From an uncultured Planctomycetia bacterium (lineage in GTDB: Bacteria > Omnitrophota > Gorgyraeia > 2-02-FULL-51-18), in contig CAYJVC010000001.1 of the NCBI GenBank assembly GCA_964373505.1, positions 41,630 through 105,629 on the forward strand: DNA of 64,000 nucleotides, in the 5' to 3' direction. The notes under the pieces are model-generated. The model saw only the letters and a list, made by a program, of their open reading frames with translations, was not told the origin of the DNA and ran no database searches. A program made the position numbers and the translations under genes. Below are positions 3,025-43,452 of the stretch, piece by piece (position 1 is the first letter of the stretch; each line of letters starts with the position of its first letter).

Positions 3025-3140
3025 ATGACCCCACCCCCTCATTTTGAGGCGGACTGTTTTTGGGGTTTTTTGAGTCGTATTTGATTCGCCTCGACGCGCT
3101 TTGCGCCTCGGCGCGTAGCGCAAATGAGGGGGTGGGGTGA
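3025..3140 (+). repeat. Structured intergenic element copy E1: arms CCCCACCCCCTCATTT / AAATGAGGGGGTGGGG, right arm contains lysS GTG start
   Basis: 16-bp perfect inverted repeat (3029-3044 vs 3122-3137) flanking ~77 nt of GC hairpins. ATGACCCC at left, GGGGTGA at right. Confidence 0.8.
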
Positions 3141-4600
3141 CAGAACCAAACGATCTTATTAGCGAACGCCGGAAGAAGCTTGAGGCGATCAAGTCCATGG
3201 GGCTGGAGCCTTTCGGAGGCAAGTTCCATAAGCCGCACCTCATCGCATCGGTGGTTGAAGGCTACGAGGAGAGTAAAAAGGTGAGCGTCGCGGGGCGCCT
3301 ATCTTCGATCCGCCTCATGGGCAAAACCGCATTCTGCGACCTAAAGGATGAAAGCGGCCGTATCCAGCTTTACATCAAGCGGGAACTTCTGGGGGAACAG
3401 GGGTTGAAACTTTTTGAACGGCTGGATCTGGGCGATATTGTCGGCGCGGAAGGTGCGCTTTTTAAAACCAAGACCGGCGAGATCTCGATCCACGTCGACA
3501 AACTGACTCTGCTGGCCAAGAGCCTGAGGCCCATGCCTGAAAAATGGCACGGACTTAAGGACGTCGAACAACGGTACCGCCAGCGTTACCTCGACCTCGC
3601 ATCAAATGACACGACCAAAGAGATCTTCAAGAAGCGTTCTTTCGTGATCCGCTCGATCCGCAGGATGTTGGACGAGAAGGGCTATTTGGAGGTGGAAACG
3701 CCCATGATGCATCCGATCCCCGGAGGTGCCGCCGGCAAGCCCTTTAAAACACACCACGAGGCGCTGAACATGACCCTCTATTTACGGGTGGCGCCCGAAC
3801 TTTACCTTAAAAAACTGCTCGTCGGCGGCTTTGACAAAGTGTACGAGATCAACAAAAGTTTCCGGAATGAAGGGATCTCCACGCGCCACAACCCCGAATT
3901 CACGATGCTGGAGGTGTACACCGCGTATGACGATGTGAATGACGTGATGCATTTGACCGAGGAGCTCCTCAAGGGCGCGGCGCTCAGCACGCTCGGTGCC
4001 TTGACCGTCCCCTGGGGTGAGGGGACCCTGGACCTTTCGAAGTGGCCGCGCGTGTCGTTCGCCGACCTCATGAAGAAGAATTTTGACATCAACCCGGAAG
4101 ACCCTGAGCGGGTCTGGATCGAGAGGATGAAAAAAAAAGGCGTGAAACTGGAATCTCAGGACGGCCACGAGCTTTCGCGCACGCAGCTTATCAATATCGT
4201 CGGCGAGATCCTGGAGCCCGGCACGCATCTTTCGCGGAACGGTCACCCTGTTTTTGTGACGGATTATTTCACGGAGCTTTGCCCGCTCGCCAAGAAGAAC
4301 AGGCGGAATCCCCATCTGAGCGACCGTTTTGAGCTTTATATCGGCGGCATGGAGATCGCGAACGGTTACTCGGAGCTTAACGACCCTCTCGAGCAGCGGG
4401 AACGGCTGCTGCGGGAACTGGAGGAGAAGGGCAAACAAAGTACGTTCGAGAGCCTCGATGAGGATTTTTTAAGGGCGCTTGAGCATGGCATGCCTCCGGC
4501 CGGCGGACTCGGCATTGGGATCGACCGGCTCGTGATGATTTTGACCAATCAGCCGTCGATCCGCGAGGTGATCCTTTTTCCTCAGATGAGGAAAGAATAA
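3137..4600 (+). CDS. lysS: Lysyl-tRNA synthetase (class II)
   Basis: 487 aa. N-term ...RRKKLEAIKSMGLEPFGGKF, class II motifs (FRNEG, GGLGIGIDRLVM). GTG start inside element E1. Confidence 0.95.
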   Translation: MTEPNDLISERRKKLEAIKSMGLEPFGGKFHKPHLIASVVEGYEESKKVSVAGRLSSIRLMGKTAFCDLKDESGRIQLYIKRELLGEQGLKLFERLDLGDIVGAEGALFKTKTGEISIHVDKLTLLAKSLRPMPEKWHGLKDVEQRYRQRYLDLASNDTTKEIFKKRSFVIRSIRRMLDEKGYLEVETPMMHPIPGGAAGKPFKTHHEALNMTLYLRVAPELYLKKLLVGGFDKVYEINKSFRNEGISTRHNPEFTMLEVYTAYDDVNDVMHLTEELLKGAALSTLGALTVPWGEGTLDLSKWPRVSFADLMKKNFDINPEDPERVWIERMKKKGVKLESQDGHELSRTQLINIVGEILEPGTHLSRNGHPVFVTDYFTELCPLAKKNRRNPHLSDRFELYIGGMEIANGYSELNDPLEQRERLLRELEEKGKQSTFESLDEDFLRALEHGMPPAGGLGIGIDRLVMILTNQPSIREVILFPQMRKE

Positions 4601-4601
4601 G

Positions 4602-5792
4602 TTGATTTTTATGCATTACGAATGGCTGATCGCGCAGCGCTACCTCTGGTCGAAACGCCGCCATCCGTTCGTGGGCGTGACCAGTACGATCTCTATTGTG
4701 GGGATCTCGGTGGGCGTGGCCGCGCTTCTTGTGGTGTTGGCCGTGATGAACGGATTTGACGGGGAACTGAAAAAAAGGATCATCGGCACGCGCGCGCATT
4801 TGGTCATCGAAAAAGACGGCGCCCTTAGCAATTACGCGCCTTTGTCGGCGTCGCTTCTGAAGCTCAAAGGCGTGGCGGGCGCCTCGCCGTTCGTGGAAGG
4901 CCAGGCGCTGATTCAAAAAGGCGAATGGGGAACGGGAGTGCTCGTGCGCGGCATCGACCCGGCTCTTGAGGGATCGGTGTCGAATTTCCATGAATACCTG
5001 AAAGAGGGCACGCTCTCGGGACGCGAAAAGTTCGCGGTCGTCGGTTCCGAGCTTGCGCGCCGTTTCAACCTGACCGTCGGCTCGAAATTCTCGGTCCTTT
5101 CGCAGTCCACAAAAAAACCGCTGGAATATGCGGTGGAGGGGATCTTTACTTCGGGGCTCTACGAGTACGACGCGAATCTATTGTTCCTGAATTTAAAGGA
5201 CGCTCAGGAGCTTTTTGAAATGAACAACGCGGTGTCCGGTATTTCGCTCAAACTTCAAAATGCCGAGGAGGCCGATCTCTATAAAAGGGGAATTCAAAAT
5301 AAATTGAAATACCCGTATGTCGTACGCACCTGGATGGACATGAACAGGACGCTTTTCGGGGCTCTCAAACTCGAAAAGATCGTGATGTTCCTGATCCTGG
5401 CGCTCATCATCCTTGTGGCCTGCCTCAACATCGCGGGGAGCCTCACGATGCTCGTGATGGACAAAACAAAGGACATCGGGATCCTGAAGGCGCTGGGCGC
5501 GACGCCCGGGGGTATTCTCAAGATATTTGCGCTTGACGGCCTTTTTATCGGGCTCTTCGGCGTGGGCGCGGGTTTCCTGACGGGAATGACGCTGTGCCTG
5601 GTCTTGGCCCACACCTCCTTCATTGATCTGCCGAAGGAGATTTATTACGTGGACCGGCTGCCTGTGAGCATCGATCCGCTCGACATCACGCTCGTGCTCG
5701 CGCTGGCCGTTATTTTAAGTTTTGTTTCTTCGCTTTACCCCGCTTGGGTGGCGGGCAGGCTTACTCCGGTAAAGGCGCTTCGTTATGAGTGA
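4602..5792 (+). CDS. lolE: Lipoprotein-releasing system permease, LolC/LolE (FtsX/MacB-like) family
   Basis: 396 aa, N-term TM, periplasmic domain, C-term FtsX-like 3-TM bundle. Immediately followed by lolD. Confidence 0.8.
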   Translation: MIFMHYEWLIAQRYLWSKRRHPFVGVTSTISIVGISVGVAALLVVLAVMNGFDGELKKRIIGTRAHLVIEKDGALSNYAPLSASLLKLKGVAGASPFVEGQALIQKGEWGTGVLVRGIDPALEGSVSNFHEYLKEGTLSGREKFAVVGSELARRFNLTVGSKFSVLSQSTKKPLEYAVEGIFTSGLYEYDANLLFLNLKDAQELFEMNNAVSGISLKLQNAEEADLYKRGIQNKLKYPYVVRTWMDMNRTLFGALKLEKIVMFLILALIILVACLNIAGSLTMLVMDKTKDIGILKALGATPGGILKIFALDGLFIGLFGVGAGFLTGMTLCLVLAHTSFIDLPKEIYYVDRLPVSIDPLDITLVLALAVILSFVSSLYPAWVAGRLTPVKALRYE

Positions 5793-7421: not shown

Positions 7422-7945
7422 GCTGCGACGAATGCGGAAAAAATAAGGCGACCGTTCATCTCACCGAGATTATCAACGATCAGATCACGAAGCTGAACCT
7501 CTGTGAGACCTGCGCGAAGGAGAAAGGTTCGGACGTGGAACAGCATTTCGGAATCGGAGACCTTTTGGCCGCGCTCTCCGACACGCACACAGCCTCGGCG
7601 ACCGCGGAAGCGCCGGCGATGAAAGGCCGATGCGCGCAGTGCGGGCTGACGTATGATGATTTTAAGAAAATCGGCCGCCTCGGCTGCAGTGACTGCTACA
7701 ACGCTTTCAAACCGAGCCTTGCGCCGCTTCTTAAGAAAATTCACGGATCCAATCAGCATTTGGGCAAGTCCCTTAGCCCGCAGGCGCTCAGTGAACTCAA
7801 GGTTTCTTCCAAGCATCACGATGAGCTTGAGCTCGTGAAGCAGGAGCTTCAAAAGGCGGTGAAGAATGAGGAGTTTGAGGAGGCGGCCGCGCTCCGCGAC
7901 AAGATCAAGTTTCTGGAAAAGAAGATAAAAGAGGGCAAGGCATGA
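7418..7945 (+). CDS. mcsA: McsA-like protein (CxxC zinc-finger pairs + UVR domain), activator of protein-arginine kinase
   Basis: CDECG, CETC, CAQCG, CSDC motifs then UVR motif EEFEEAAALRDKIKFLEKK. Directly upstream of mcsB. Confidence 0.7.
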   Translation: MSCDECGKNKATVHLTEIINDQITKLNLCETCAKEKGSDVEQHFGIGDLLAALSDTHTASATAEAPAMKGRCAQCGLTYDDFKKIGRLGCSDCYNAFKPSLAPLLKKIHGSNQHLGKSLSPQALSELKVSSKHHDELELVKQELQKAVKNEEFEEAAALRDKIKFLEKKIKEGKA

Positions 7946-8058
7946 CCCCATCCCCTCCTTTTTTATTTAGAGAATTGATGAATCCGCCCGCGGCGGGTTC
8001 ATGCGCCGTTTCCCGGATGATGAGTATTGAAGCGGCGCAAAAGGAGGGGATGGGGTGA
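7942..8058 (+). repeat. Structured intergenic element copy E2: arms CCCCATCCCCTCCTTTT / AAAAGGAGGGGATGGGG, bridges mcsA stop (ATGA) and mcsB GTG start (GTGA)
   Basis: 17-bp perfect inverted repeat (7946-7962 vs 8039-8055). Inner hairpins GCGCCG..CGGCGC, ATGAA..TTCAT. An element-spanning 38-codon ORF runs from ATG 7942 to TGA 8056. Confidence 0.8.
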
Positions 8059-11686: not shown

Positions 11687-13132
11687 GTGCAATCCTATTC
11701 AGTCAAGAGTCGAACCCGGTTCTGGATCAAAGGCGCGGCGCTGGTCCTGGTTATGATCGGCGTGTTTGTGTTCCTGAGGGAGCGCAAAGAAGCGCTTGTG
11801 CGGGAATGTGTCCGCTTGATCGAAAAAGGCTTAAGCCAATCGAGTCAAACCCGGGTCAAGATCGGGAGGGTCCGGGGGAATTTGCTCGGGTTTATCCGGT
11901 TTGAGAACGTGGAGGTCGGCGGGCTCGGGATCGCCGAATCCGAGCCTCCGGCGTTCAAGATCCAGGAACTGGAACTCCGCTTCCGCTTCCTTGATTTTTT
12001 ATCGAAGAGGTTCGATTCAAAGATCGTGCTGATCGTAAAAAATCCGGAGGTTCGCTGGAAGCCGTACCTGGGGATCCGGGTCCCCCAATTTCCTATTTTC
12101 GGATGGATGCGTGAATGGGCCAGCTCCCAGAAAAGTAATTTCCTCCTGAAGGTGGAAGGCCTGTCGCTGTCTTTCGAGGGTTACAAGCCGTTCCGATTGA
12201 GTGGAATAAACGCGCAAGCCGAAGGAGAAACGTTCCACATGGAGCTGCCCGTTTCGCATGTTCCAATGGGCCGGTCGGACGTTACTTCGGTGATCGTAGT
12301 CGACGGAAAATTTGACCCAGGTCCGCGCGCCGACGAGGACATACTCGTGGGTCGGATCCACACCGAGGGCACCGTGATCGACTGGAAACCGGTTTCCCAG
12401 GAGTCGGTGTTTAATTTCGTGTTCACTCAGGAGGCATTTCGCTTAAGTTCAGCCAACTTTGTCGGCGGGATCCAGATAGATGGACAGGTTGATTTTACGA
12501 ACGATTATGAGCTGTCCCTTTCCATCTACGCCAAGGACGTGCCTATGCGTGAGCTTGGATTTTTTCTGAAACTCGATAAAAGCCTTGCTTCTGCCGGTCG
12601 TTTTGACCTGGAGGTCAATTTTGAGGGCAATTTTTTGGCGCCTCAAATGGAAGCTCACGCGAGGATCTACGATGGTTTTATAGGCGCCCGCGCATTTAAA
12701 ATGATGGACCTGAACGCCGAAGGGGTTTATCCCACCGTGCGCCTGAACAATTCCAGGATATTGCTTGAGGATGGTTCGACGATGCGTCTTGCGGACGATG
12801 TGCTGGAGATCGGGGATCTTCTTCGCAGCTCCACGTTCCATTCGCTGATCTCCGGGTCGCAGCAGGACACCGTGGTGTGGGGTGACTGGGAATTCAGCCG
12901 CCCGACCGACGATGAGGCCAGACCCGAATTTCTCATGCAGCGCCTTTTTGGAGAGCACGCGCGCGTACATTTCAAGAAAATGAATGAGGACCCGGAGGAA
13001 TTTCAGGATCGCCGGTCCCAGGACATGGAAGTCGGTTTTGAATACAAGCTTCGCTCTGAAAACTCCTTAAAACTGGAATACCGGGACGACCAGGAAGTGG
13101 TCGGCGTCATAGAAAGGAAATCGAGGTTCTAG
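11687..13132 (+). CDS. Hypothetical membrane-anchored protein (single N-terminal TM, large beta-rich domain), possibly AsmA-like. Start uncertain (GTG 11687 or ATG 11753)
   Basis: ORF 11606..13132 overlaps clpC 3' end. First in-frame start after clpC stop is GTG 11687. Hydrophobic helix ALVLVMIGVFVFL. No recognisable catalytic motif. Confidence 0.45.
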   Translation: MQSYSVKSRTRFWIKGAALVLVMIGVFVFLRERKEALVRECVRLIEKGLSQSSQTRVKIGRVRGNLLGFIRFENVEVGGLGIAESEPPAFKIQELELRFRFLDFLSKRFDSKIVLIVKNPEVRWKPYLGIRVPQFPIFGWMREWASSQKSNFLLKVEGLSLSFEGYKPFRLSGINAQAEGETFHMELPVSHVPMGRSDVTSVIVVDGKFDPGPRADEDILVGRIHTEGTVIDWKPVSQESVFNFVFTQEAFRLSSANFVGGIQIDGQVDFTNDYELSLSIYAKDVPMRELGFFLKLDKSLASAGRFDLEVNFEGNFLAPQMEAHARIYDGFIGARAFKMMDLNAEGVYPTVRLNNSRILLEDGSTMRLADDVLEIGDLLRSSTFHSLISGSQQDTVVWGDWEFSRPTDDEARPEFLMQRLFGEHARVHFKKMNEDPEEFQDRRSQDMEVGFEYKLRSENSLKLEYRDDQEVVGVIERKSRF

Positions 13133-20697: not shown

Positions 20698-21559
20698 GGA
20701 ACTCAAAGATCAGCCGAACGTCATCCCGGCGATCAAGGCTGCGCTCGAAAAGGGGCGTTTGGGGCACGCGCTTTTGTTTCAGGGGGGTTCCGATTCGGCC
20801 TCCCGCGAAACAGCGATGGAGCTTGCAAAAGCGCTTTTCTGCGAGGATCTCAAAGAATGGGAGTCTTGTGACGCGTGCCGCCCCTGCCGGCTGGTGGTCC
20901 GCAACGCGCATCCGGATTATCTCAAGGTGTCCCCGCTCGAAGGTTCCGAGGTCGTGAAGATCGGGCAGATCCGGGAGCTTGTGGCGACAGCCAATCTCAA
21001 GCCTTTTGAAGCGCGCTCCAAGCTCTTTGTGATCGATCCGGCCGAGGCGATGAATGAAGAGGCGCAGAGCGCATTCCTTAAGACGCTCGAGGAGCCTCCG
21101 GGGTCCACGCGCTTTGTTCTCATCACCCGGAATCCGGCGGGACTTCTCGAAACCATTCGCTCGCGCTGCCGGCTATTTTCTTTTGCGCCTTCGCGTGAAG
21201 CAGCCTCGAAAGACCCGGAGCTTGAGGGCCTGAAGCGGGAGGCGACCGAGATTTTTCTATCACGAGGCGAGCGGCGTACGCCGGGTCTTCCGGATCTGGC
21301 CAAGTTTGAGCGGGAAGAGGTTCAGGAGCTTTTAGACACGCTCATGGAGTATTTCCGGGATTGTCTCCTCATCCGGGTGGGGGCGGACGCGATGCTTTCG
21401 GGGGAGGAAGATCTTAGCCGCAAACGCAGGGTTGCCGGCGAACGAAGCGAGACCGAGCTTCAAGACTTGATCCAATTTTTTTCAGAAATAAAGGAAAAAG
21501 TTTCCGAAAAGGTGAACTTGAAGCTTGTGGCGTCGGCGCTTTGGGAGGCGGCACCGTGA
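20687..21559 (+). CDS. holB: DNA polymerase III delta-prime subunit
   Basis: AAA+ clamp-loader fold with degenerate Walker A, Zn module CxxC..C..C, SRC-like arginine finger motif SRCRLFSF. Confidence 0.75.
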   Translation: MSFRELKDQPNVIPAIKAALEKGRLGHALLFQGGSDSASRETAMELAKALFCEDLKEWESCDACRPCRLVVRNAHPDYLKVSPLEGSEVVKIGQIRELVATANLKPFEARSKLFVIDPAEAMNEEAQSAFLKTLEEPPGSTRFVLITRNPAGLLETIRSRCRLFSFAPSREAASKDPELEGLKREATEIFLSRGERRTPGLPDLAKFEREEVQELLDTLMEYFRDCLLIRVGADAMLSGEEDLSRKRRVAGERSETELQDLIQFFSEIKEKVSEKVNLKLVASALWEAAP

Positions 21560-21628
21560 CCCCGCCCCCTGATCGTAACGGTCGCGAAGCGATCGGTCGC
21601 CATGGCGACCGATCAGGGGGTGGGGTGA
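21556..21628 (+). repeat. Structured intergenic element copy E3: arms CCCCGCCCCCTGATCG / CGATCAGGGGGTGGGG (one G-U wobble), between holB stop (GTGA) and metG GTG start
   Basis: Arms 21560-21575 vs 21610-21625. Inner perfect 24-bp palindrome GATCGGTCGCCATGGCGACCGATC shares CGATC with right arm. Element length 69 nt keeps left GTG in frame with metG. Confidence 0.8.
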
Positions 21629-29335: not shown

Positions 29336-29405
29336 CCCCATCCCCTGTTTCCTGCGATCGCAAAGCGATCGGTCCACAGAGCGGAGGAAACAGGGGATGG
29401 GGTGG
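29333..29405 (+). repeat. Structured intergenic element copy E4: arms CCCCATCCCCTGTTTCC / GGAAACAGGGGATGGGG, followed by T-rich tract (terminator-like) after alr
   Basis: 17-bp perfect inverted repeat (29336-29352 vs 29384-29400). Inner TGCGATCGCA palindrome. Shares 12-mer AAGCGATCGGTC with E3. GTG in right arm not followed by a plausible gene. Confidence 0.8.
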
Positions 29406-31216: not shown

Positions 31217-31354
31217 TGAATAAATCCGAAGCACGAAATCCGAAATCCGAAACACAAAATTCAAAACAAAGGTTTCGGTCATTCGAATTTAGGGTTTCGA
31301 ATTTGTTTCGTGCTTCGTGCTTCGAATTTAGGATTTAGCACGAAAGGAGGATTT
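31217..31354 (+). repeat. AT-rich repeat-laden spacer between ilvB and ilvN: tandem CGAAATC x3, TTCGAATTT x3, TTCGAATTTAGG x2, forming a ~35-nt imperfect inverted repeat
   Basis: Left half AATCCGAAGCACGAAATCCGAAATCCGAAACAC is near-reverse-complement of right half GGTTTCGAATTTGTTTCGTGCTTCGTGCTTCGAATT. GC ~35% vs ~58% flanks. Confidence 0.6.
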
Positions 31355-31881: not shown

Positions 31882-32868
31882 ATGGTAAAGATCTATTACG
31901 ACAATGATGCGGACTTGTCATTGATCCGGAGTAAGGCAGTAGGGATGATCGGGTACGGCATTCAGGGGCGCGGTCAGGCGCTCAACTTAAGGGACAGCGG
32001 TGTCCGGGTGATCGTGTCCCAAAGACCCGGCGGGCCGAACCACGCGCAAGCCGTGAAGGATGGTTTCGACCCCGTGGAGGCCTCGGAGCTTGCCGGAAAG
32101 TCCGACGTGATCATCGTCCTGGCGCAGGATCCGCTGCAGGCCGAGATCTACAAAAAATCGGTCGCGCCGCATCTGACAAAAGGCAAGGCACTGGCGTTTT
32201 CGCACGGATTCAATATCCATTTCAAGCAGATCGTCCCGCCGAAGTTCGTGGACGTTTTCATGGTGGCCCCGAAGGGGCCGGGCAGCCTTGTGCGGCGCCT
32301 TTACGAAGAGGGTAAAGGCGTTCCGTGCCTCGTGGCCATCTACCAGGACGCTACGAAAACATGTAAGGAGCTCGCGCTTTCCTACGCGAAGGCGCTCGGC
32401 GGCACGCGCGCCGGCGTGATCGAAACCACGTTTAAAGAGGAGACCGAAACGGATCTTTTTGGCGAGCAGTCGGTGTTGTGCGGCGGCACGAGCGCTCTCA
32501 TCAAGGCGGGTTTTGAGACGCTCGTGAAGGCCGGTTACCAGCCGGAGGTCGCGTATTTCGAATGTTTGCACGAGCTGAAACTTATCACGGACATGATATA
32601 CGCCACGGGCATTCAGGGCATGAGAAAACGAGTGTCGGACACGGCCGAGTACGGCGACTTGACGCGCGGCCCGCGCATCGTGAACCAGAAAACGCGCGCC
32701 CAAATGCAGAAGATCCTCAAGGACATCCAATCGGGGAAATTCGCGAAGGAGTTTTTGGCGGACTATCACAAGGGCAAAAAGAATTTTGAGAAATTGCGCC
32801 ATGCGGATGACGACCATCCCATTGAAAAAGTAGGAGCGAAGCTCCGCGGAATGATGCGCTGGTTATAA
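31882..32868 (+). CDS. ilvC: Ketol-acid reductoisomerase (class I, short form)
   Basis: Rossmann [17 protein letters not shown], catalytic C-terminal knotted domain, 328 aa. Confidence 0.95.
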
Positions 32869-32874
32869 GATCAT

Positions 32875-32983
32875 TGTGACGTTCACGGGTGACGCGAGGC
32901 GGGGCGCCCCATTCGCGCGCAGCGAACCTCAGTTACGCGAGCAAGAATGGGGCTGCCGAGCGGCAGGACCCGTGAACGTCACA
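32875..32983 (+). repeat. Nested palindromic intergenic element (family 2) between ilvC and leuA: outer 16-bp perfect arms TGTGACGTTCACGGGT / ACCCGTGAACGTCACA enclosing three GC hairpins
   Basis: Arms 32875-32890 vs 32968-32983. Inner GGGGCGCCCC (32901-32910), GCCCCATTC..GAATGGGGC (32906-32914/32945-32953), CTGCCGagCGGCAG (32953-32966). Confidence 0.75.
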
Positions 32984-32996
32984 TAGAGAGTGTTTT

Positions 32997-34553
32997 ATGG
33001 ATGATAAAAACAAAATCTACATATTTGACACGACGCTTCGCGACGGCGAACAATCGCCGGGTGCCAGCCTCGACCAAAAAGGAAAGCTCGAGATCGCCCG
33101 GCAGCTGGCCCAGCTACGCGTAGACGTGATCGAGGCGGGTTTCCCCGTGACCTCTCCCGGGGATGCCGCAGCCGTGAGATCCATCGCAAAAGAAGTGAAA
33201 GGCCCCGTTATTTGTGCGCTGGCGCGCACGGTCCAAAAAGACATTGACATTGCCCTCGAGTCTTTAAAGCCCGCGAATCGGAGCCGTCTCCACGTTTTCA
33301 TCGCGACCTCTGAGATCCACCGCAAATACAAATTAAACAAGGCCAAGGAAGAGATCGTCCGGATCGCGACCGCGTCCGTGAGGTACGCGAGGGAACGTAT
33401 CGGCGAGGTTGAGTTCTCTCCGGAGGATGCTTCTCGCACCGAACCGCCTTTTTTGTACGAGGTGCTCGAGGCCGTGATCCAAGCCGGCGCACGGGTGCTG
33501 AACATCCCGGACACCGTCGGCTATGCAACCCCGTTCGAGTTCGGGAACCTGATTAAAGGCATTTTTGAGAATGTTCCCAGTATCGGCAAGACGATCGTGA
33601 GCGTCCACTGTCACAACGACCTGGGTCTGGCGGTCGCCAATTCACTCGCGGCCGTGAAGTTCGGCGCGCGCCAAGTCGAGTGCACCGTGAACGGCATCGG
33701 CGAGCGCGCCGGGAACGCGGCCATGGAAGAGGTCGTGATGGCTCTCGACACGCGCCGGGACATCTTTGGCGACAAGGTCACCCAAGTCCGAAAAGACCAG
33801 ATCTGCAAGACGAGCCGTCTGGTGAGCTCGCTCACCGGCATGATGGTCCAGGCGAACAAGGCCGTCGTGGGGCGCAACGCATTCACGCATGAGTCGGGCA
33901 TCCATCAGGACGGCCTTTTGAAGCTGAGAAAGACCTATGAGATCATGCGGCCCGAGGAAGTGGGATTCGGTGAGACACAGCTCGTGCTCGGCAAGCACTC
34001 GGGGCGGCATGCGCTCGAAAATCGTCTGGCGAAGCTCGGTTACAAATTGAACCCGAAAGAGCTCGAGACGGTGTTCGAAAATTTCAAACACTTGGCCGAC
34101 AAGAAAAAAGAGGTATTTGACGACGACCTGGCCGCGCTTGTGGACAAAGAGATCGTGTCCACGCCAAAAACCTATGAGCTCGTGTATCTCAGCGCACTGA
34201 CCGAATCGGAAAAAGCCCCGAAGGTCTCACTTAAGATCAAGCACAAGGACCGTGTGCTGTCCGCGGCCGGCACCGGCTCGGGCCCCGTGGACGCCGCCTA
34301 CAAAACGATCGACAAGATCTTGAAGTCCAAGAGCACGCTTTTGGATTATAAGATCCGCTCCGTGACCGTCGGCAAGGACGCGCAAGGCGAGGTGACCGTG
34401 AAAGTTGAAGGTTCCCGCGGCGAGGTGGCGATCGGGCAGGGTTTGAGCACCGACGTCATAGAGGCTTCCGTCAAGGCGTATTTGGCGGCACTCAATAAAC
34501 TTCATCAAAGGTCGGCGCCGCCAGGCAAAGAAAAAACGGCGCATGGCGTTTAG
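32997..34553 (+). CDS. leuA: 2-isopropylmalate synthase (long form with C-terminal LeuA regulatory domain)
   Basis: [29 protein letters not shown] (TIM-barrel metal site), ~150-aa C-terminal regulatory domain. Citramalate synthase not excluded. Confidence 0.8.
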
Positions 34554-39157: not shown

Positions 39158-41200
39158 GCGGGGGAAAAAGTACTCGTCATCGTGGAATCGCCCGCCAAGT
39201 GCAAGACCATTCACAAATACCTGGGCGACAGTTTTGAAGTGGCCGCCTCGATGGGCCATGTCGTGGACCTGCCTAGAAGCAGGATGGGTATTGACATCGC
39301 GCATAATTTCCAGCCGCAGTACATCGTCGCAAAGGACCGTAAGAAAACCCTGGCGGAATTGAAGAGGAAGGCAAAAGGCAAGAGCGCGATCTACCTGGCC
39401 TGCGACCCTGACCGCGAGGGGGAGGCCATCAGCTGGCATCTAAAGAACCAGCTTGGGAAAGGCAAGAAAGTCGTGCGCGTCGTATTCAATGAGATAACCA
39501 AAGACGCGGTGCAGGAGGCTTTCAAGCACCCTTCCGGCATTGACATGAATCTCGTGGGCGCGCAGCAGGCGCGCCGGGTGTTGGACCGCATTGTCGGCTA
39601 TTCTCTAAGCCCGCTTTTGTGGCAAAAGGTCGGCCGCGGCCTTTCGGCGGGCCGCGTGCAATCCGTGGCGCTTCGTCTCGTCGTTGACCAGGAGCGTAAG
39701 ATCGGGTCATTCGTGGCCGAGGAGTACTGGACGGTTGAGGCCGGGCTTAAGAAGCAGAAAGGCGACACGAAGCCGTTTGTTGCGAAGCTTGAAAAGATCG
39801 GGGACAAAAAGGCCCAGATCCAGGACGGTAAAACCGCCTCTTGGGTCGCCGAGAAAGCCGCAAAGCTTCCGTTCGTCGTCCGGGAAGTCAAAAAGCAAAA
39901 GAAAAAAAGGAACCCCACTCCTCCGTTCACGACCAGCAAACTCCAGCAGGCCGCTTACAATCTTTTAAAGTTCCCAGCCTCCAAGACGATGCGGATCGCG
40001 CAGACGCTTTACGAAGGGGTTGAGTTGGGGAGAGAGGGAAGCGTGGGCCTGATTACCTACATGAGGACCGACTCGGTAAGGTTGTCGGATGTGGCCATTG
40101 AAGAGACGCGCGGGCTTATTGTGAAGCAATATGGGAAGAGCTACCTGCCGCCCCGGCCTAATATTTACAAGTCCAAGAAAGGCGCGCAGCAGGCGCACGA
40201 AGCGATCCGTCCGACCTCGGTGTTCCGCCAGCCGAAGGAGATTGAAAAATACCTGACGCCGGACCAGAATAAATTGTATGCGATCATCTGGCGGCAGGCA
40301 GTTGCCAGCCAAATGACGCCGGCCGTCATCGCGCAAGAGACGGCGGACATCGCCGCAGGCGAGTACTTGTTTCGCGCGACGGGCAGCCGCGTGGAATTTC
40401 CCGGGTGCCTGGCAGTCCAGGGGAAGACGGAGAGCGAGGAGAATGTTCTGCCGAGCCTTTTGCCTGACGAAAAACTCACGCTTTTAGGTTTGAAACACGA
40501 GCAGCATTTTACAAAACCGCCTGCCCGATTTACGGACGCGTCGCTCGTGAAAGCACTTGAAGAAAATGGGATCGGTCGGCCTTCCACCTACGCGCCGACC
40601 CTCCAGACCTTGACCGAGCGGGATTACGTCCGACGCGACGGCGGGAGCCTCGTACCTACGGAGCTTGGCATGCTGGTGACGGACCTTCTTGTGAAGCATT
40701 TTTCAAAAATTCTAGACTTTGAGTTCACGGCCAAAATGGAGGAGGAACTTGACGAAGTGGAAGAGGGCCAGACGGATTGGGTGAGCGTGGTGAGGGAATT
40801 CTACGGCGTGTTCAACGGCCAAATGGACCTTGCGAAGGTCCAAATGGAAACCGTGAAGCGTGTGGCCGAACCCACGGATGAAATCTGCGACCACTGCGGC
40901 AAACCCATGGTGATCAAGTGGGGACGCCGCGGGCGGTTCATGAGTTGTTCGAGCTGGCCGACCTGCCGGAACGCAAAATCCATTTCCACGGATGTGGTAT
41001 GCCCTCAGTGTGGCAAGGGAAAGCTTGTGGCGCGCCGCGCTCGCTCGGGGCGCGGCCGGCCTTTTTTTGGATGCACGGCTTACCCGACGTGCACATTCAT
41101 CACAAACCGCTTGCCTAAAGACGGCGCGCTGCAGACGGCACCCAAAAACCCCGCGGAAGCTGAGGCGGAGCCTTCCGAGACGGAGGGAGAAGGTCAGTGA
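38957..41200 (+). CDS. topA: DNA topoisomerase I with in-frame N-terminal ThiS-like domain (ThiS-TopA fusion ORF)
   Basis: After ThiS GGG and a 4-aa AGEK linker comes the Toprim start KVLVIVESPAKCKTI. Continues through full TopA core and C-terminal Zn-ribbon repeats (CDHCG..C..C, CPQCG..C..C). Confidence 0.9.
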   Translation: MITIRLNGEKKTLERTLTLAELLSEMGVPKEKVVVERNLEIIPRDRLEAVCLAEADEVEIVHFVGGGAGEKVLVIVESPAKCKTIHKYLGDSFEVAASMGHVVDLPRSRMGIDIAHNFQPQYIVAKDRKKTLAELKRKAKGKSAIYLACDPDREGEAISWHLKNQLGKGKKVVRVVFNEITKDAVQEAFKHPSGIDMNLVGAQQARRVLDRIVGYSLSPLLWQKVGRGLSAGRVQSVALRLVVDQERKIGSFVAEEYWTVEAGLKKQKGDTKPFVAKLEKIGDKKAQIQDGKTASWVAEKAAKLPFVVREVKKQKKKRNPTPPFTTSKLQQAAYNLLKFPASKTMRIAQTLYEGVELGREGSVGLITYMRTDSVRLSDVAIEETRGLIVKQYGKSYLPPRPNIYKSKKGAQQAHEAIRPTSVFRQPKEIEKYLTPDQNKLYAIIWRQAVASQMTPAVIAQETADIAAGEYLFRATGSRVEFPGCLAVQGKTESEENVLPSLLPDEKLTLLGLKHEQHFTKPPARFTDASLVKALEENGIGRPSTYAPTLQTLTERDYVRRDGGSLVPTELGMLVTDLLVKHFSKILDFEFTAKMEEELDEVEEGQTDWVSVVREFYGVFNGQMDLAKVQMETVKRVAEPTDEICDHCGKPMVIKWGRRGRFMSCSSWPTCRNAKSISTDVVCPQCGKGKLVARRARSGRGRPFFGCTAYPTCTFITNRLPKDGALQTAPKNPAEAEAEPSETEGEGQ

Positions 41201-42081
41201 TGAGCAGTTCCGTTAAAAAATTTTTGACCTACCTCAGTGTTGAAAGGAATTATTCCGAACACACGGTAACCGGTTATTCGCACGATCTGCGCGAGTTTTA
41301 CGGCTTCTTGGGCAAGACCGCGCTCGAGGATGCGGACGTGCTTTTATTAAGAAAGTACTTGGTGATCCTCAGGGACAAGAGCCTTTCGAAAAAGACCGTC
41401 GCGCGGCACATGGCAGCGCTCAGGAGTTACTTTAAATTTCTCATGAGAGAAGGATTGTTAAAAAAAAATCCCATGGGCCTTTTAAGGATCCCGAAACTCG
41501 CCAAGCGCCTGCCGGTGGTGCTGGATGAGAAAGAGGTGGATGCGCTTTTAGGCGCGCCTGAGGATGACCTTGCGGGCCGTCGTGACAGAGCGATCTTCGA
41601 AACGCTTTATTCGGCGGGAATGCGCGTATCCGAGCTTGTGCAGCTCGATGTGGACGGCGTCGATTTTATCGGGGGGGTGTGCCGCGTGCTTGGAAAGGGC
41701 CGCAAAGAGCGGCTTTGCCCCATCGGCGAACAGGCACTCACGAGCATTCGCCGCTACTTGGAGCTGAGGGATCGCCAGGAAAGAAGCAAGTCCCCCGCTT
41801 TGTTCCTGAATCATTCGTCGAATAGATCCGGCTCGCGGCTCACGTCCCGCAGTGTGTGCCGGCTCCTGGAAAGATACATTCAGCGTACCTGCCGCAAGGA
41901 AGGGGTGTCGCCGCACACGCTTCGTCATTCATTCGCGACACACCTTTTGAACCGCGGAGCGGACCTGCGGTCCGTGCAGGAGCTTTTGGGACATGAAAAT
42001 CTGTCAACGACCCAGATCTACACGCACGTTTCGACACAACGTCTGAAAGAGGCTTATGACAAAGCGCATCCGAGAGCGTGA
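41197..42081 (+). CDS. xerC: Tyrosine site-specific recombinase XerC/XerD family
   Basis: N-terminal SAM-like core-binding domain. Catalytic R..HxxR..Y (HTLRHSFATHLL, ...TQIYTHV). dprA-topA-xerC synteny. Confidence 0.8.
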   Translation: MMSSSVKKFLTYLSVERNYSEHTVTGYSHDLREFYGFLGKTALEDADVLLLRKYLVILRDKSLSKKTVARHMAALRSYFKFLMREGLLKKNPMGLLRIPKLAKRLPVVLDEKEVDALLGAPEDDLAGRRDRAIFETLYSAGMRVSELVQLDVDGVDFIGGVCRVLGKGRKERLCPIGEQALTSIRRYLELRDRQERSKSPALFLNHSSNRSGSRLTSRSVCRLLERYIQRTCRKEGVSPHTLRHSFATHLLNRGADLRSVQELLGHENLSTTQIYTHVSTQRLKEAYDKAHPRA

Positions 42082-42133
42082 CGGCATTCGCGGGTCCTGC
42101 CGCTGCGGCAGGTCGCCGTCACCCGCGAATGCC
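42078..42133 (+). repeat. Nested palindromic intergenic element (family 2) between xerC and waaA: outer arms GGCATTCGCGGGT / ACCCGCGAATGCC, inner hairpin CCTGCCGCtGCGGCAGG, alternative pairing GTGACGGC/GCCGTCAC
   Basis: Perfect 13-bp outer arms (42083-42095 vs 42121-42133). Perfect 8-bp inner stem (42096-42112). Left arm shares TTCRCGGGT core with the ilvC-leuA element. Confidence 0.75.
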
Positions 42134-42147
42134 ACCGGGCCATCCGT

Positions 42148-43452
42148 ATGAGAATGATATATAGTTTTTGTCTTGCAGTTTTTTCAATTTTTTATTTGCC
42201 GGTTTATTTGTTGAAAGGCAAACACAAAAACGGTTTTATGTCGCTTTTCGGGTTTGTTCCCGAAGAAACTCGAAGGGCGCTGCGAGGGCGTCGCGTGATC
42301 TGGGTGCACGGCGTATCCGTCGGGGAAGTGGTCCAGGCGTTCCGTTTGGTCCGGTCGCTCAAGAAAAGGCTGCCCTCCGCGAGGTTTTTGGTGACAACCA
42401 CGACCCTCGCAGGAAAAGAGGTGGCTTTGAAACTCAGATCCGCGGAGGACCGAGTACTCACTTTCCCGGCGGATTTCGTAGGCAGCATGCGCCGGTTCCT
42501 CCAAAGCGTCGAACCGGCCGCTTTGGTGCTCGTAGAGACTGAAATATGGCCGAATCTTTTGTCGGAGGTTTCCAAACAACGCATTCCGGCCTTCATCGTG
42601 AACGGCCGGATCTCAGACAAGACCGTTTCAAAATACCGGAACGTACGATTTTTTCTCGGGCCGATCCTCAACCGCCTTCAGGCGATCGGCACGCAGGACG
42701 ACCTGATGAGAGAGCGTTTTGTGGGCTTGGGTGCGGATCCGCGGATCGTTTCAGTGACCGGGAACATGAAATTCGACTGGCAGCCTGGTTTGTCCGACGC
42801 GGGGCTCCTAGGCTCGCTCCAAACAGCGCTTCACCCGGCCGGCAGCTTTCTTTTGGTCGCGGGCAGCACTCACGAGGGCGAGGAGGGGATTCTTTTCGAG
42901 GTTTACCGACGAGTGATCGGGAGGCATAAAAACTTTAGACTTTTCATTGCTCCCAGACATTTGGACCGTATGGATTCGATCGAACGGCAGGCTTCCGAAA
43001 GCGGCCTGACAGTTATCCGGATCTCACAATTTCGCCGCGAAGGGCGCCAGGCGCTGTCGACGGACGGCCGGATCGTTTTCTTGCTGGACTCGATGGGGGC
43101 GCTCGCCGATTTCTACCGCGATGCGGACGCTGTTTTTGTCGGTGGGAGCCTTGTGCCGACCGGCGGCCATAATCTGGCGGAGCCGGCGTACTTTGAAAAG
43201 CCCGTTCTTTTCGGCCCCCATATGGAAAATTTCAGCCAGATGGCCGCGGAATTCAAGAAAAATTCCGCCGGAATTGAAGTGAAAAATGCCAAAGAACTGG
43301 GGGCGCGTATCGAGGAGCTCATCGAACACCGGGATAAGGGCCGTCTGTTGGGGCAAAAGGCCAGGGAGCTGGTGTCGCGCCATCAGGGCGCCACGGAGCG
43401 GAATGTGAGCGTGCTTTTAGATAATCTGTCGAGTGCGGGGGTGAAGCTGTGA
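42148..43452 (+). CDS. waaA: 3-deoxy-D-manno-octulosonic acid (Kdo) transferase
   Basis: N-terminal anchor, WVHGVSVGE motif, GT-B fold C-terminal domain (GGSLVPTGGHNLAEPA). Confidence 0.85.
   Translation: MRMIYSFCLAVFSIFYLPVYLLKGKHKNGFMSLFGFVPEETRRALRGRRVIWVHGVSVGEVVQAFRLVRSLKKRLPSARFLVTTTTLAGKEVALKLRSAEDRVLTFPADFVGSMRRFLQSVEPAALVLVETEIWPNLLSEVSKQRIPAFIVNGRISDKTVSKYRNVRFFLGPILNRLQAIGTQDDLMRERFVGLGADPRIVSVTGNMKFDWQPGLSDAGLLGSLQTALHPAGSFLLVAGSTHEGEEGILFEVYRRVIGRHKNFRLFIAPRHLDRMDSIERQASESGLTVIRISQFRREGRQALSTDGRIVFLLDSMGALADFYRDADAVFVGGSLVPTGGHNLAEPAYFEKPVLFGPHMENFSQMAAEFKKNSAGIEVKNAKELGARIEELIEHRDKGRLLGQKARELVSRHQGATERNVSVLLDNLSSAGVKL

Follow-up and report, generated by a model that had tools for sequence, protein, structure and literature searches.

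A hairpin between ilvC and leuA in an Omnitrophota contig is probably a copy of a dispersed selfish palindromic repeat

In the window analysed here, a 64-kb stretch (64,000 nucleotides) of contig CAYJVC010000001.1 from an uncultured bacterium, the genes ilvC and leuA are separated by a 109-nt hairpin-forming element at positions 32875-32983. This element is probably a copy of a non-autonomous, selfish palindromic DNA repeat, similar in its behaviour to the repetitive extragenic palindromic sequences (REPs and REPINs) and the Rickettsia palindromic elements (RPEs). The copy was inserted in the source lineage, it belongs to a family of dispersed palindromes with covarying helices, and the members of this family occur in either orientation at gene ends or in protein linkers. 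The ilvC-leuA locus itself is ordinary, and the hairpin should best be annotated as a repeat insertion and not as a regulatory signal.

The hairpin structure at this junction is far beyond chance. Its outer arms, TGTGACGTTCACGGGT (32875-32890) and ACCCGTGAACGTCACA (32968-32983), comprise 16 nt each, are 100% complementary and enclose 77 nt, compared with an arithmetic expectation of ~0.003 perfect 16-mer inverted repeats within 200 nt per 64 kb; an inverted-repeat search also returned a perfect inner pair, GCCCCATTC/GAATGGGGC (32906-32914 / 32945-32953). Folded as RNA, the plus strand of the element reaches -68.9 kcal/mol (shuffled sequences, -43.3 +/- 3.5 kcal/mol; z = -7.3; none of 200 shuffles folds equally well) and the minus strand -67.0 kcal/mol (z ~ -7.3; likewise 0 of 200), either strand being predicted to form a single long imperfect hairpin. 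Its three helices, P1 to P3 from base to tip, and the segments conserved in the family are placed as follows:

32875-32983, minus strand: full repeat copy of 109 nt, delimited by inverted repeat I1, the folds and the fit to the family alignment
32875-32890: left outer arm, consisting of the 11-nt copy-specific extension TGTGACGTTCA and the conserved CGGGT half of P1
32886-32894, minus strand: invariant 3' core CGTCACCCG (last two P2 pairs, unpaired TC, P1 strand), from invariant alignment columns
32906-32914: P3 strand GCCCCATTC, from inverted repeat I3 and the CCC(C) runs at fixed distance from both cores
32915-32944: variable apical region with a tip of the GCTCGCG...CTGCGCG type common to some other members, from the alignments
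32945-32953: P3 partner strand GAATGGGGC, from inverted repeat I3
32961-32972, minus strand: invariant 5' core CGGGTCCTGCCG (P1 strand, unpaired CCTGC, first two P2 pairs), from an exact match and invariant alignment columns
32968-32983: right outer arm, consisting of the ACCCG half of P1 and the extension TGAACGTCACA

In family orientation (CGGGTCCTGCCG...CGTCACCCG), this copy is read from the minus strand and is antisense to both neighbouring genes, ilvC and leuA; CGTCACCCGTGAA matches on the same strand at 32882-32894, spanning the 3' core. Read in this direction, the copy fits the family layout as CGGGUCCUGCCG-CUCGG-CA-GCCCCAUUC...GAAUGGGGC-GCCCCGC-CUCG-CGUCACCCG, and the covariance model of the family, R1, scores it at 70.2 bits over 32880-32978 (minus strand), the copy itself being part of the seed alignment. 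The coordinates, the perfect 16-bp arms 77 nt apart and the location of the element, close behind the stop codon of ilvC and ending 13 nt short of the leuA ATG, agree with a first-pass annotation of this DNA. The three local hairpins that this annotation had placed inside the arms are superseded by the one long three-helix hairpin with conserved internal loops. One of them, GGGGCGCCCC, is a loop-less palindrome, unable to form a hairpin by itself, made up of GGGGC at 32901-32905 and the adjoining P3 strand GCCCCATTC, which in the family layout is one P3 strand abutting a conserved C/G-rich bulge; another, CTGCCG-ag-CGGCAG, would have a loop of only 2 nt and corresponds to the invariant CCTGCCG beside a P2 strand that is complementary to it by chance in this subfamily. 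The annotation had rightly set the element apart from classical terminators: no T/U-tract follows the hairpin (the next nucleotides are TAGAGAGTG), and no terminator-like site was called there.

Evidence for an insertion comes from the same junction in related genomes. The element lies between the following two genes, with ilvB and ilvN upstream of ilvC and aroE downstream of leuA:

31882-32868, plus strand: ilvC, ketol-acid reductoisomerase (Pfam KARI_N/KARI_C), with its TAA at 32866-32868, 6 nt before the element
32997-34553, plus strand: leuA, 2-isopropylmalate synthase (Pfam HMGL-like/LeuA_dimer), with its ATG at 32997, 13 nt after the element

The nearest relatives of LeuA in the protein collection come from metagenome-assembled genomes (MAGs) of Candidatus Omnitrophota. 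One relative from groundwater (L118/L119; LeuA 82% identical) has the same ilvC-leuA-aroE order with a 13-nt spacer and no hairpin between ilvC and leuA, and a second one (L120; LeuA 85% identical) keeps this order with an 18-nt spacer, again without hairpin; removal of the 109-nt element would leave a spacer of 6 + 13 = 19 nt in the window. Since the element is absent from the short ilvC-leuA spacers of these two relatives, it is an insertion in the source lineage and not a conserved part of the operon. A different palindrome, GGGGTCAGGCCCCGCCCAAG...CTTGGGCAGGGTCTGACCC with GGGGTCAG ends, occupies the leuA-aroE spacer of L118 (2865-2925), which measures 5 nt in the window; hairpin insertions at stop-to-start junctions are thus polymorphic among these Omnitrophota genomes.

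The element has relatives both within and beyond the window. A search with the signature TTCRCGGGT...ACCCGYGAA, as proposed in the first-pass annotation, recovered one further copy within the window:

42083-42133, plus strand: second, shorter family copy without P3, delimited by inverted repeat I17 and sense to its flanking genes

This copy, which was outside the model seed, scores 37.3 bits with R1 (E = 2e-6), folds to -44.4 kcal/mol (z = -4.6) and has TTCRCGGGTCCTGCCG...GTCACCCGYGAA in common with the ilvC-leuA copy. Its neighbours are the gene for a XerC/D-like recombinase (41197-42081) on one side and that for a KDO-transferase (42148-43452) on the other. The tyrosine recombinase gene (Phage_integrase + SAM_1) ends 1 nt before the copy, which is probably a coincidence, since no recombinase recurs beside other copies. 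Beyond the window, more than 100 further copies were retrieved from metagenomes and genomes. A scan of genome contigs with the 16-mer TTCRCGGGTCCTGCCG yielded 117 loci, ~100 of them random matches (~500 chance matches are expected in 596 Gb); a subset of the loci also shared an independent 3' motif. A scan of metagenome contigs with the pattern CGGGTCCTGCCG-N45-75-CGTCACCCG, that is, with a 21-nt core, returned at least 120 loci, ~10% of which may, by estimate, be chance matches, including a handful without the internal features. Matches to R1 are found in records labelled Gammaproteobacteria (including a Coxiella-like MAG), Acidobacteriota, Planctomycetota, Bacillota, Krumholzibacteriota, Myxococcota and Elusimicrobiota. 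The single match in a viral contig collection indicates that the family is not phage-specific, and a plasmid BLAST search gave nothing meaningful. The first-pass annotation had suggested that the element may belong to a second REP-like family, and these dispersed palindromic relatives bear this out; the family differs from the CCCC-box elements of the same window.

Across the family, the element measures 70-160 nt and comprises three helices. In family orientation, the base is formed by a variable inverted repeat of 0-16 bp, followed by CGGGU (P1) and an unpaired CCUGC; the middle consists of CG plus 4-6 covarying pairs (P2) and 2-4 nt that are often U-rich; the top is P3, which starts with (G)CCCC, carries a variable tip of 3 to >100 nt and returns with GGGG(C). 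The return side continues with a bulge NNCCCCN, the P2 return plus CG, an unpaired UC and ACCCG as the P1 return. An alignment of 82 typical members (A1) has 21 invariant columns, forming a core of 12 + 9 nt, with CCC(C) runs whose distance from either core motif is fixed. In these 82 members, 78.6% of the cells in the three helices are paired, versus 64.7% when columns are shuffled (none of 500 shuffles attains the observed value), pairing drops to 42-46% when the partners are slid against each other, and 17 of 25 helix pairs vary on both sides. Alignment-free counts likewise find CG, GC, UA and AU at P2 and at the basal pairs. Among the mismatches in the helices, G-U (45) and A-C (51) are about equally frequent; this symmetry implies that neither strand is favoured as RNA. 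The flanks of 118 metagenome copies show no conserved motif beyond one G-C pair. Subfamilies possess outer arms of their own, for example CAAAACCC/GGGTTTTG in L126, L133 and L200, and the 11-nt arm extension of the ilvC-leuA copy is accordingly specific to the copy or its subfamily.

By crude ORF (open reading frame) calls, most copies are 4-30 nt from an ORF end, and dispersed copies close to gene 3' ends occur on many contigs. Between co-directional genes 15 copies are sense and 18 antisense, while 9 others have convergent and 4 have divergent neighbours. Relative to their genes, the pair of copies in the window likewise point in opposite directions. No neighbouring protein recurs beyond syntenic orthologues, the neighbours being unrelated housekeeping genes. 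Tandem, nested and partial or truncated copies are seen in L190, L173, L067/L101 and L132, and up to 3 copies are present in 9.5 kb (L195); a circular permutation as in ribozymes, considered for L073, turned out to be two tandem copies. In one MAG labelled Coxiella, near-identical copies are present at unrelated loci on different contigs (L047 and L090). These two loci (478-515 and 4585-4620, respectively) also share ~36 extra nt on one side (ctttgcagcagatacatKaatcYgaggc...), so that the repeated unit in this MAG is longer than the hairpin and asymmetric. A Polyangia MAG holds arrays of 150-320 nt units (L067, 3500-4500; L101, 4500-5100), each unit beginning with TGGAGCGACYGAGCTTCGATGGAGCTTCA followed by a long-tipped family copy; here the element is embedded in a larger tandem repeat. 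As to the window, its GC skew is positive in all 4-kb bins, the cumulative skew rises, and every gene examined is on the plus strand. It probably belongs to the leading strand; the family copies are nonetheless in opposite orientations.

Some members of the family lie inside genes. Some 40 of 137 copies (~40) are located in a frame that is open for at least 50 codons on each side, although some of these frames are spurious ORFs in GC-rich DNA. Five genes were checked, and all five (5/5) encode real Pfam domains on both sides of the segment encoded by the element:

E2 acyltransferase (L161, L169, L170, L131, L208): Biotin_lipoyl, E3_binding and 2-oxoacid_dh
DnaX (L199, L228): domain III and DnaX_C
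GatB (L137): GatB_N and GatB_Yqey
MnmA (L157): in-frame copy with Pfam domains on both sides
DUF2298 membrane protein (L129): in-frame copy in an AT-rich genome

In all five, the in-frame copies sit within linkers. In a syntenic set of contigs, two copies of opposite orientation bracket the E3-binding domain of the E2 gene, and orthologous E2 loci differ by compensatory changes in the stems (ACCGTCCCC/GGGGACGGT, ACCACCCCT/AGGGGTGGT, ACCCCCCCT/AGGGGGGGT). The reading frame is consistent: forward copies encode xGPA...ASP and reverse copies xGDA...AAGPA. In-frame intragenic insertion was first reported for the Rickettsia palindromic elements and then for REPs in general (PMC10969869; PMC3733652).

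A selfish palindromic repeat with these properties might propagate as follows: Its copies would multiply as DNA, probably through a single strand that folds. An enzyme acting in trans may recognise the nucleotides that are conserved and unpaired (CCTGC facing TC, together with the C-rich bulge), and copies would survive only where they do little harm, in stop-to-start gaps or in protein linkers. In the ilvBNC-leuA mRNA, the reverse-complement hairpin (-69 kcal/mol) may have only incidental consequences: it could act as a barrier to 3'-exonucleases and protect the upstream mRNA or, alternatively, as an obstacle beside the leuA ribosome-binding site that slows the initiation of leuA. Any effect on the transcript would be a by-product.

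Some of the same features would also suit a structured functional RNA, either an RNA bound by protein or a small self-cleaving ribozyme of a new type, in place of a DNA-level repeat. Conserved nucleotides in internal loops, covarying helices and a variable tip are a pattern typical of ribozymes and riboswitches, to which the cross-phylum spread, the occasional tandem arrays (L067/L101) and the compensatory changes at an orthologous locus may be added. On the other side, the copies have no orientation bias, the G-U and A-C mismatches are symmetric, and the ilvC-leuA copy runs antisense to its operon, where a promoter of its own would find no space. The family is also associated with no gene, some of its copies are in frame within genes and would be translated, and Rfam 15 is silent: neither window copy has a match at E <= 1, and matches are absent over 13 family loci at gathering score and over 10 small loci even at E <= 10. 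A functional RNA is consequently considered unlikely.

About equally improbable is a classical MITE (short for miniature inverted-repeat transposable element), that is, a deletion derivative of an insertion sequence (IS) whose outer arms would be terminal inverted repeats moved by the DDE transposase of that IS. The perfect 16-bp inverted repeats, which start with TG and end with CA, and the small, intergenic, insertion-polymorphic nature of the element are what such a derivative would display, but the window contains two copies with unlike outer arms (TGTGACGTTCA vs GGCATTCG), and the arms vary from 0 to 16 bp in the family, the conserved part being internal; moreover, no target-site duplication is visible at the ilvC-leuA copy or in pairs of copies from one genome, and no locus yielded an autonomous parent, in the sense of a longer element with a pair of core halves flanking an ORF. 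The least probable explanation is that the ilvBNC-leuA operon has evolved a cis-acting RNA element at this junction, which would set the IlvC:LeuA ratio as a stabiliser, attenuator or processing site. It could invoke the exact stop-to-start position, the very stable hairpin on the transcribed strand and the literature on REP hairpins, which are known to make upstream mRNA more stable and to influence translation when near a stop codon, but it conflicts with the empty junction in relatives whose LeuA is 82-85% identical, with the occurrence of the family beside unrelated genes in either orientation and inside coding regions, and with the lack of a U-tract and of an Rfam match. The RNA processing or stability function entertained in the first-pass annotation is therefore not upheld as an evolved one; the comparison of the ilvC-leuA junction that it proposed found the element missing in both relatives, one window copy is antisense and the other sense to its genes, and the family as a whole is as good as balanced between sense and antisense.

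The reading as a selfish DNA repeat, which is the preferred one, has to be weighed against a number of observations. (i) No direct repeat that would represent a target-site duplication is evident at the ilvC-leuA copy or in intragenomic pairs of copies, and the empty sites of the two relatives are too diverged to be aligned for breakpoints or such a duplication. (ii) Model R1 and pattern searches find exactly two copies in the 64 kb of the source genome that were analysed. (iii) With the Omnitrophota window (assigned by its LeuA relatives), the family spans eight phyla by label, and the labels of MAGs may include binning errors. (iv) The conservation of the 21-nt core across phyla and the compensatory changes in E2 exceed what decaying junk would show and could reflect a selected function. 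(v) A mobilising enzyme did not emerge from the window plus ~1.7 Mb of family loci, where tblastn with sequences of IS200 TnpA and E. coli RayT gave no match and a regular expression for the HuH...Y motif on six-frame translations found none. (vi) Five genes of the PF01797 (TIRYT) type sampled from metagenomes are flanked by unrelated terminal repeats such as AAAAGGTGTCAGGAACCTTTTT, with no R1 match; this sample (L242-L249), obtained with a profile built from the sequences in Additional file 5 of Di Nocera, represents five loci out of ~8000 homologues.

A Y1 HUH nuclease of the RAYT (REP-associated tyrosine transposase) or TIRYT type may nevertheless be put forward, tentatively and with considerable doubt, as the leading candidate for the enzyme. 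TnpA_IS200 and RAYT act on hairpins of folded single-stranded DNA (PMC6006769). The repeats flanking TIRYT/TnpA_Y1 subclass 2.1 genes have the motif GGGG[AT][CG]A[CG] (PMC3733652, PMC6006769), and CGGGTGAC, the reverse complement of the 3' core, agrees with this consensus at 7 of 8 positions. The terminal repeats of this subclass likewise belong to dispersed families, with an organisation as dimers; the present family flanks none (0/5) of the TIRYT-type genes that were fetched, and the consensus fits the CCCC-box family of the window, with its GGGGTGA[GC] ends, better.

The kind of element is known, namely selfish palindromes of the REP, REPIN and RPE type, including their in-frame copies, and the family can be compared with several described systems. 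With REPs, bacterial interspersed mosaic elements (BIMEs) and REPINs (PMC3733652, PMC6006769), it shares imperfect palindromes that are rich in GC, contain a bulge or an internal loop and are dispersed mostly just 3' of ORFs, between co-directional or convergent genes, as single copies, inverted dimers or clusters; REPs are known to be located near ORF 3' ends, to form dimers and to occur occasionally in frame within genes (Di Nocera 2013, PMC3733652). It differs from them in its greater length (70-160 nt), its three helices and a core that is kept across phyla and not within a genus, and also from RAYT-associated REPs in that no RAYT was seen near its copies, in the window and ~1.7 Mb of loci. 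The GTGA...TCAC feet of the ilvC-leuA copy recall the 'double foot' GTAG REPs (GT[AG]G...C[TC]AC), but they are paired, and the family has no conserved GT[AG]G foot tag; among 118 metagenome copies, ~8 have a 3' flank starting with CTA, three of these with CTAC. The REPs tagged with CGTC (Di Nocera 2013), which include RPE-4/RPE-6 of Rickettsia and dRS3 of Neisseria, are similar in that CGTC is invariant in the present family and that no dedicated transposase is known for them; they are spread over several phyla and have in-frame intragenic copies. Their tag, however, lies unpaired at the terminus, beyond an 8-9 bp stem whose first pairs are A-T, with a 4-5 nt loop and a CCA tail (PMC3733652), whereas the CGTC of the present family is inside the hairpin, straddling the P2 base and the internal loop, and follows none of these stem, loop and tail rules.

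RPE-1 (PMC10969869; Di Nocera 2013) is a palindrome of ~100-150 bp with no known transposase, which is found in intergenic positions and in frame in unrelated housekeeping genes, where it adds a peptide segment, as copies of the present family do. RPEs are confined to Rickettsia, whereas the host here belongs to the Omnitrophota and the ilvC-leuA copy is intergenic; this comparison is by description only. For QMITE2 of C. burnetii, matches in distant taxa are reported to keep the stem while the palindromic tip diverges (Wachter 2018, PMC5896051). It is similarly a very stable hairpin at ORF 3' ends, including that of ruvB, which one copy reportedly overlaps and which L090 also directly follows; in contrast to the present family, QMITE2 contains a GTAG REP and is targeted by IS1111 according to its description, again a comparison by description only. 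Other structures were rejected by inspection: integron attC sites occur in cassette arrays and have R''/R' boxes (RYYYAAC...GTTRRRY) in which AAC/GTT marks the inner end of the basal helix, but the polarity of the present element is the reverse (GTTC outside, GGT/ACC inside), and its copies are dispersed among housekeeping genes; for kink-turns, HDV-like or twister ribozymes, archaeal bulge-helix-bulge introns and SRP/Y-RNA mimicry, polarity and motifs do not fit, and Rfam is silent.

The family seems to be unnamed so far, with QMITE2 as a possible exception, because Rfam has no match, the core was not found in a bacterial context in the literature searched and the published tags of the REP superfamilies do not apply. 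The matches to the core string that the literature did contain presumably stem from the mengovirus process-control primer GCGGGTCCTGCCGAAAGT of enteric-virus detection studies and are a coincidence.

Further inverted repeats of the window belong to other groups. The CCCC-box family, with arms ACCCCAYCCCC...GGGGRTGGGGT, has copies at 3028-3138, 7945-8056, 21559-21626 and 29336-29402. The copies at 3028, 7945 and 21559 have TGA...TGA flanks, which supply the upstream stop codon and a GTG beside the downstream gene, while the copy at 29336 has the flanks TAG...TGG. On the right side, two copies end in GGGGTGA[GC] (at 3138 and 8056), in agreement with the TIRYT/TnpA_Y1 repeat consensus GGGG[AT][CG]A[CG] (PMC3733652, PMC6006769); the right ends of the other two copies do not fit it. 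A third hairpin in the ilv operon, at 31221-31330, is a 25-nt, 84% complementary inverted repeat (TAAATCCGAAGCACGAAATCCGAAA / TTTCGTGCTTCGTGCTTCGAATTTA) that takes up the ilvB-ilvN spacer and reaches over the start of ilvN; its sole Rfam match is a meaningless miRNA hairpin (E = 0.88). Another inverted repeat of similar spacing is found at 12547-12660 (GCGTGAGCTTGGATTT / AAATGGAAGCTCACGC; 16 nt, 88% complementary, 82 nt between the arms).

REP-like repeats are usually restricted to a genus, and the family is in this respect more interesting than the locus, with a cross-phylum core, covarying stems, in-frame copies in essential genes and no transposase found. A more far-reaching possibility, which is speculative and rather unlikely, is that the family constitutes an undescribed superfamily of structured palindromes without GTAG or CGTC terminal tags. 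Its 21-nt asymmetric core (CCU-type and C-rich bulges in covarying helices) would then have been kept across at least eight phyla as the recognition or catalytic site of a widespread trans-acting enzyme, or the folded nucleic acid would itself be active, and the family would be a source of in-frame peptide insertions outside Rickettsia. In practical terms, masking with R1 could remove a likely source of assembly breaks and of false calls of RNA motifs and terminators in MAGs. The model also provides a searchable handle for finding the enzyme that moves tag-less REPs, and it may be used to measure how far palindromic repeats remodel proteins outside Rickettsia.

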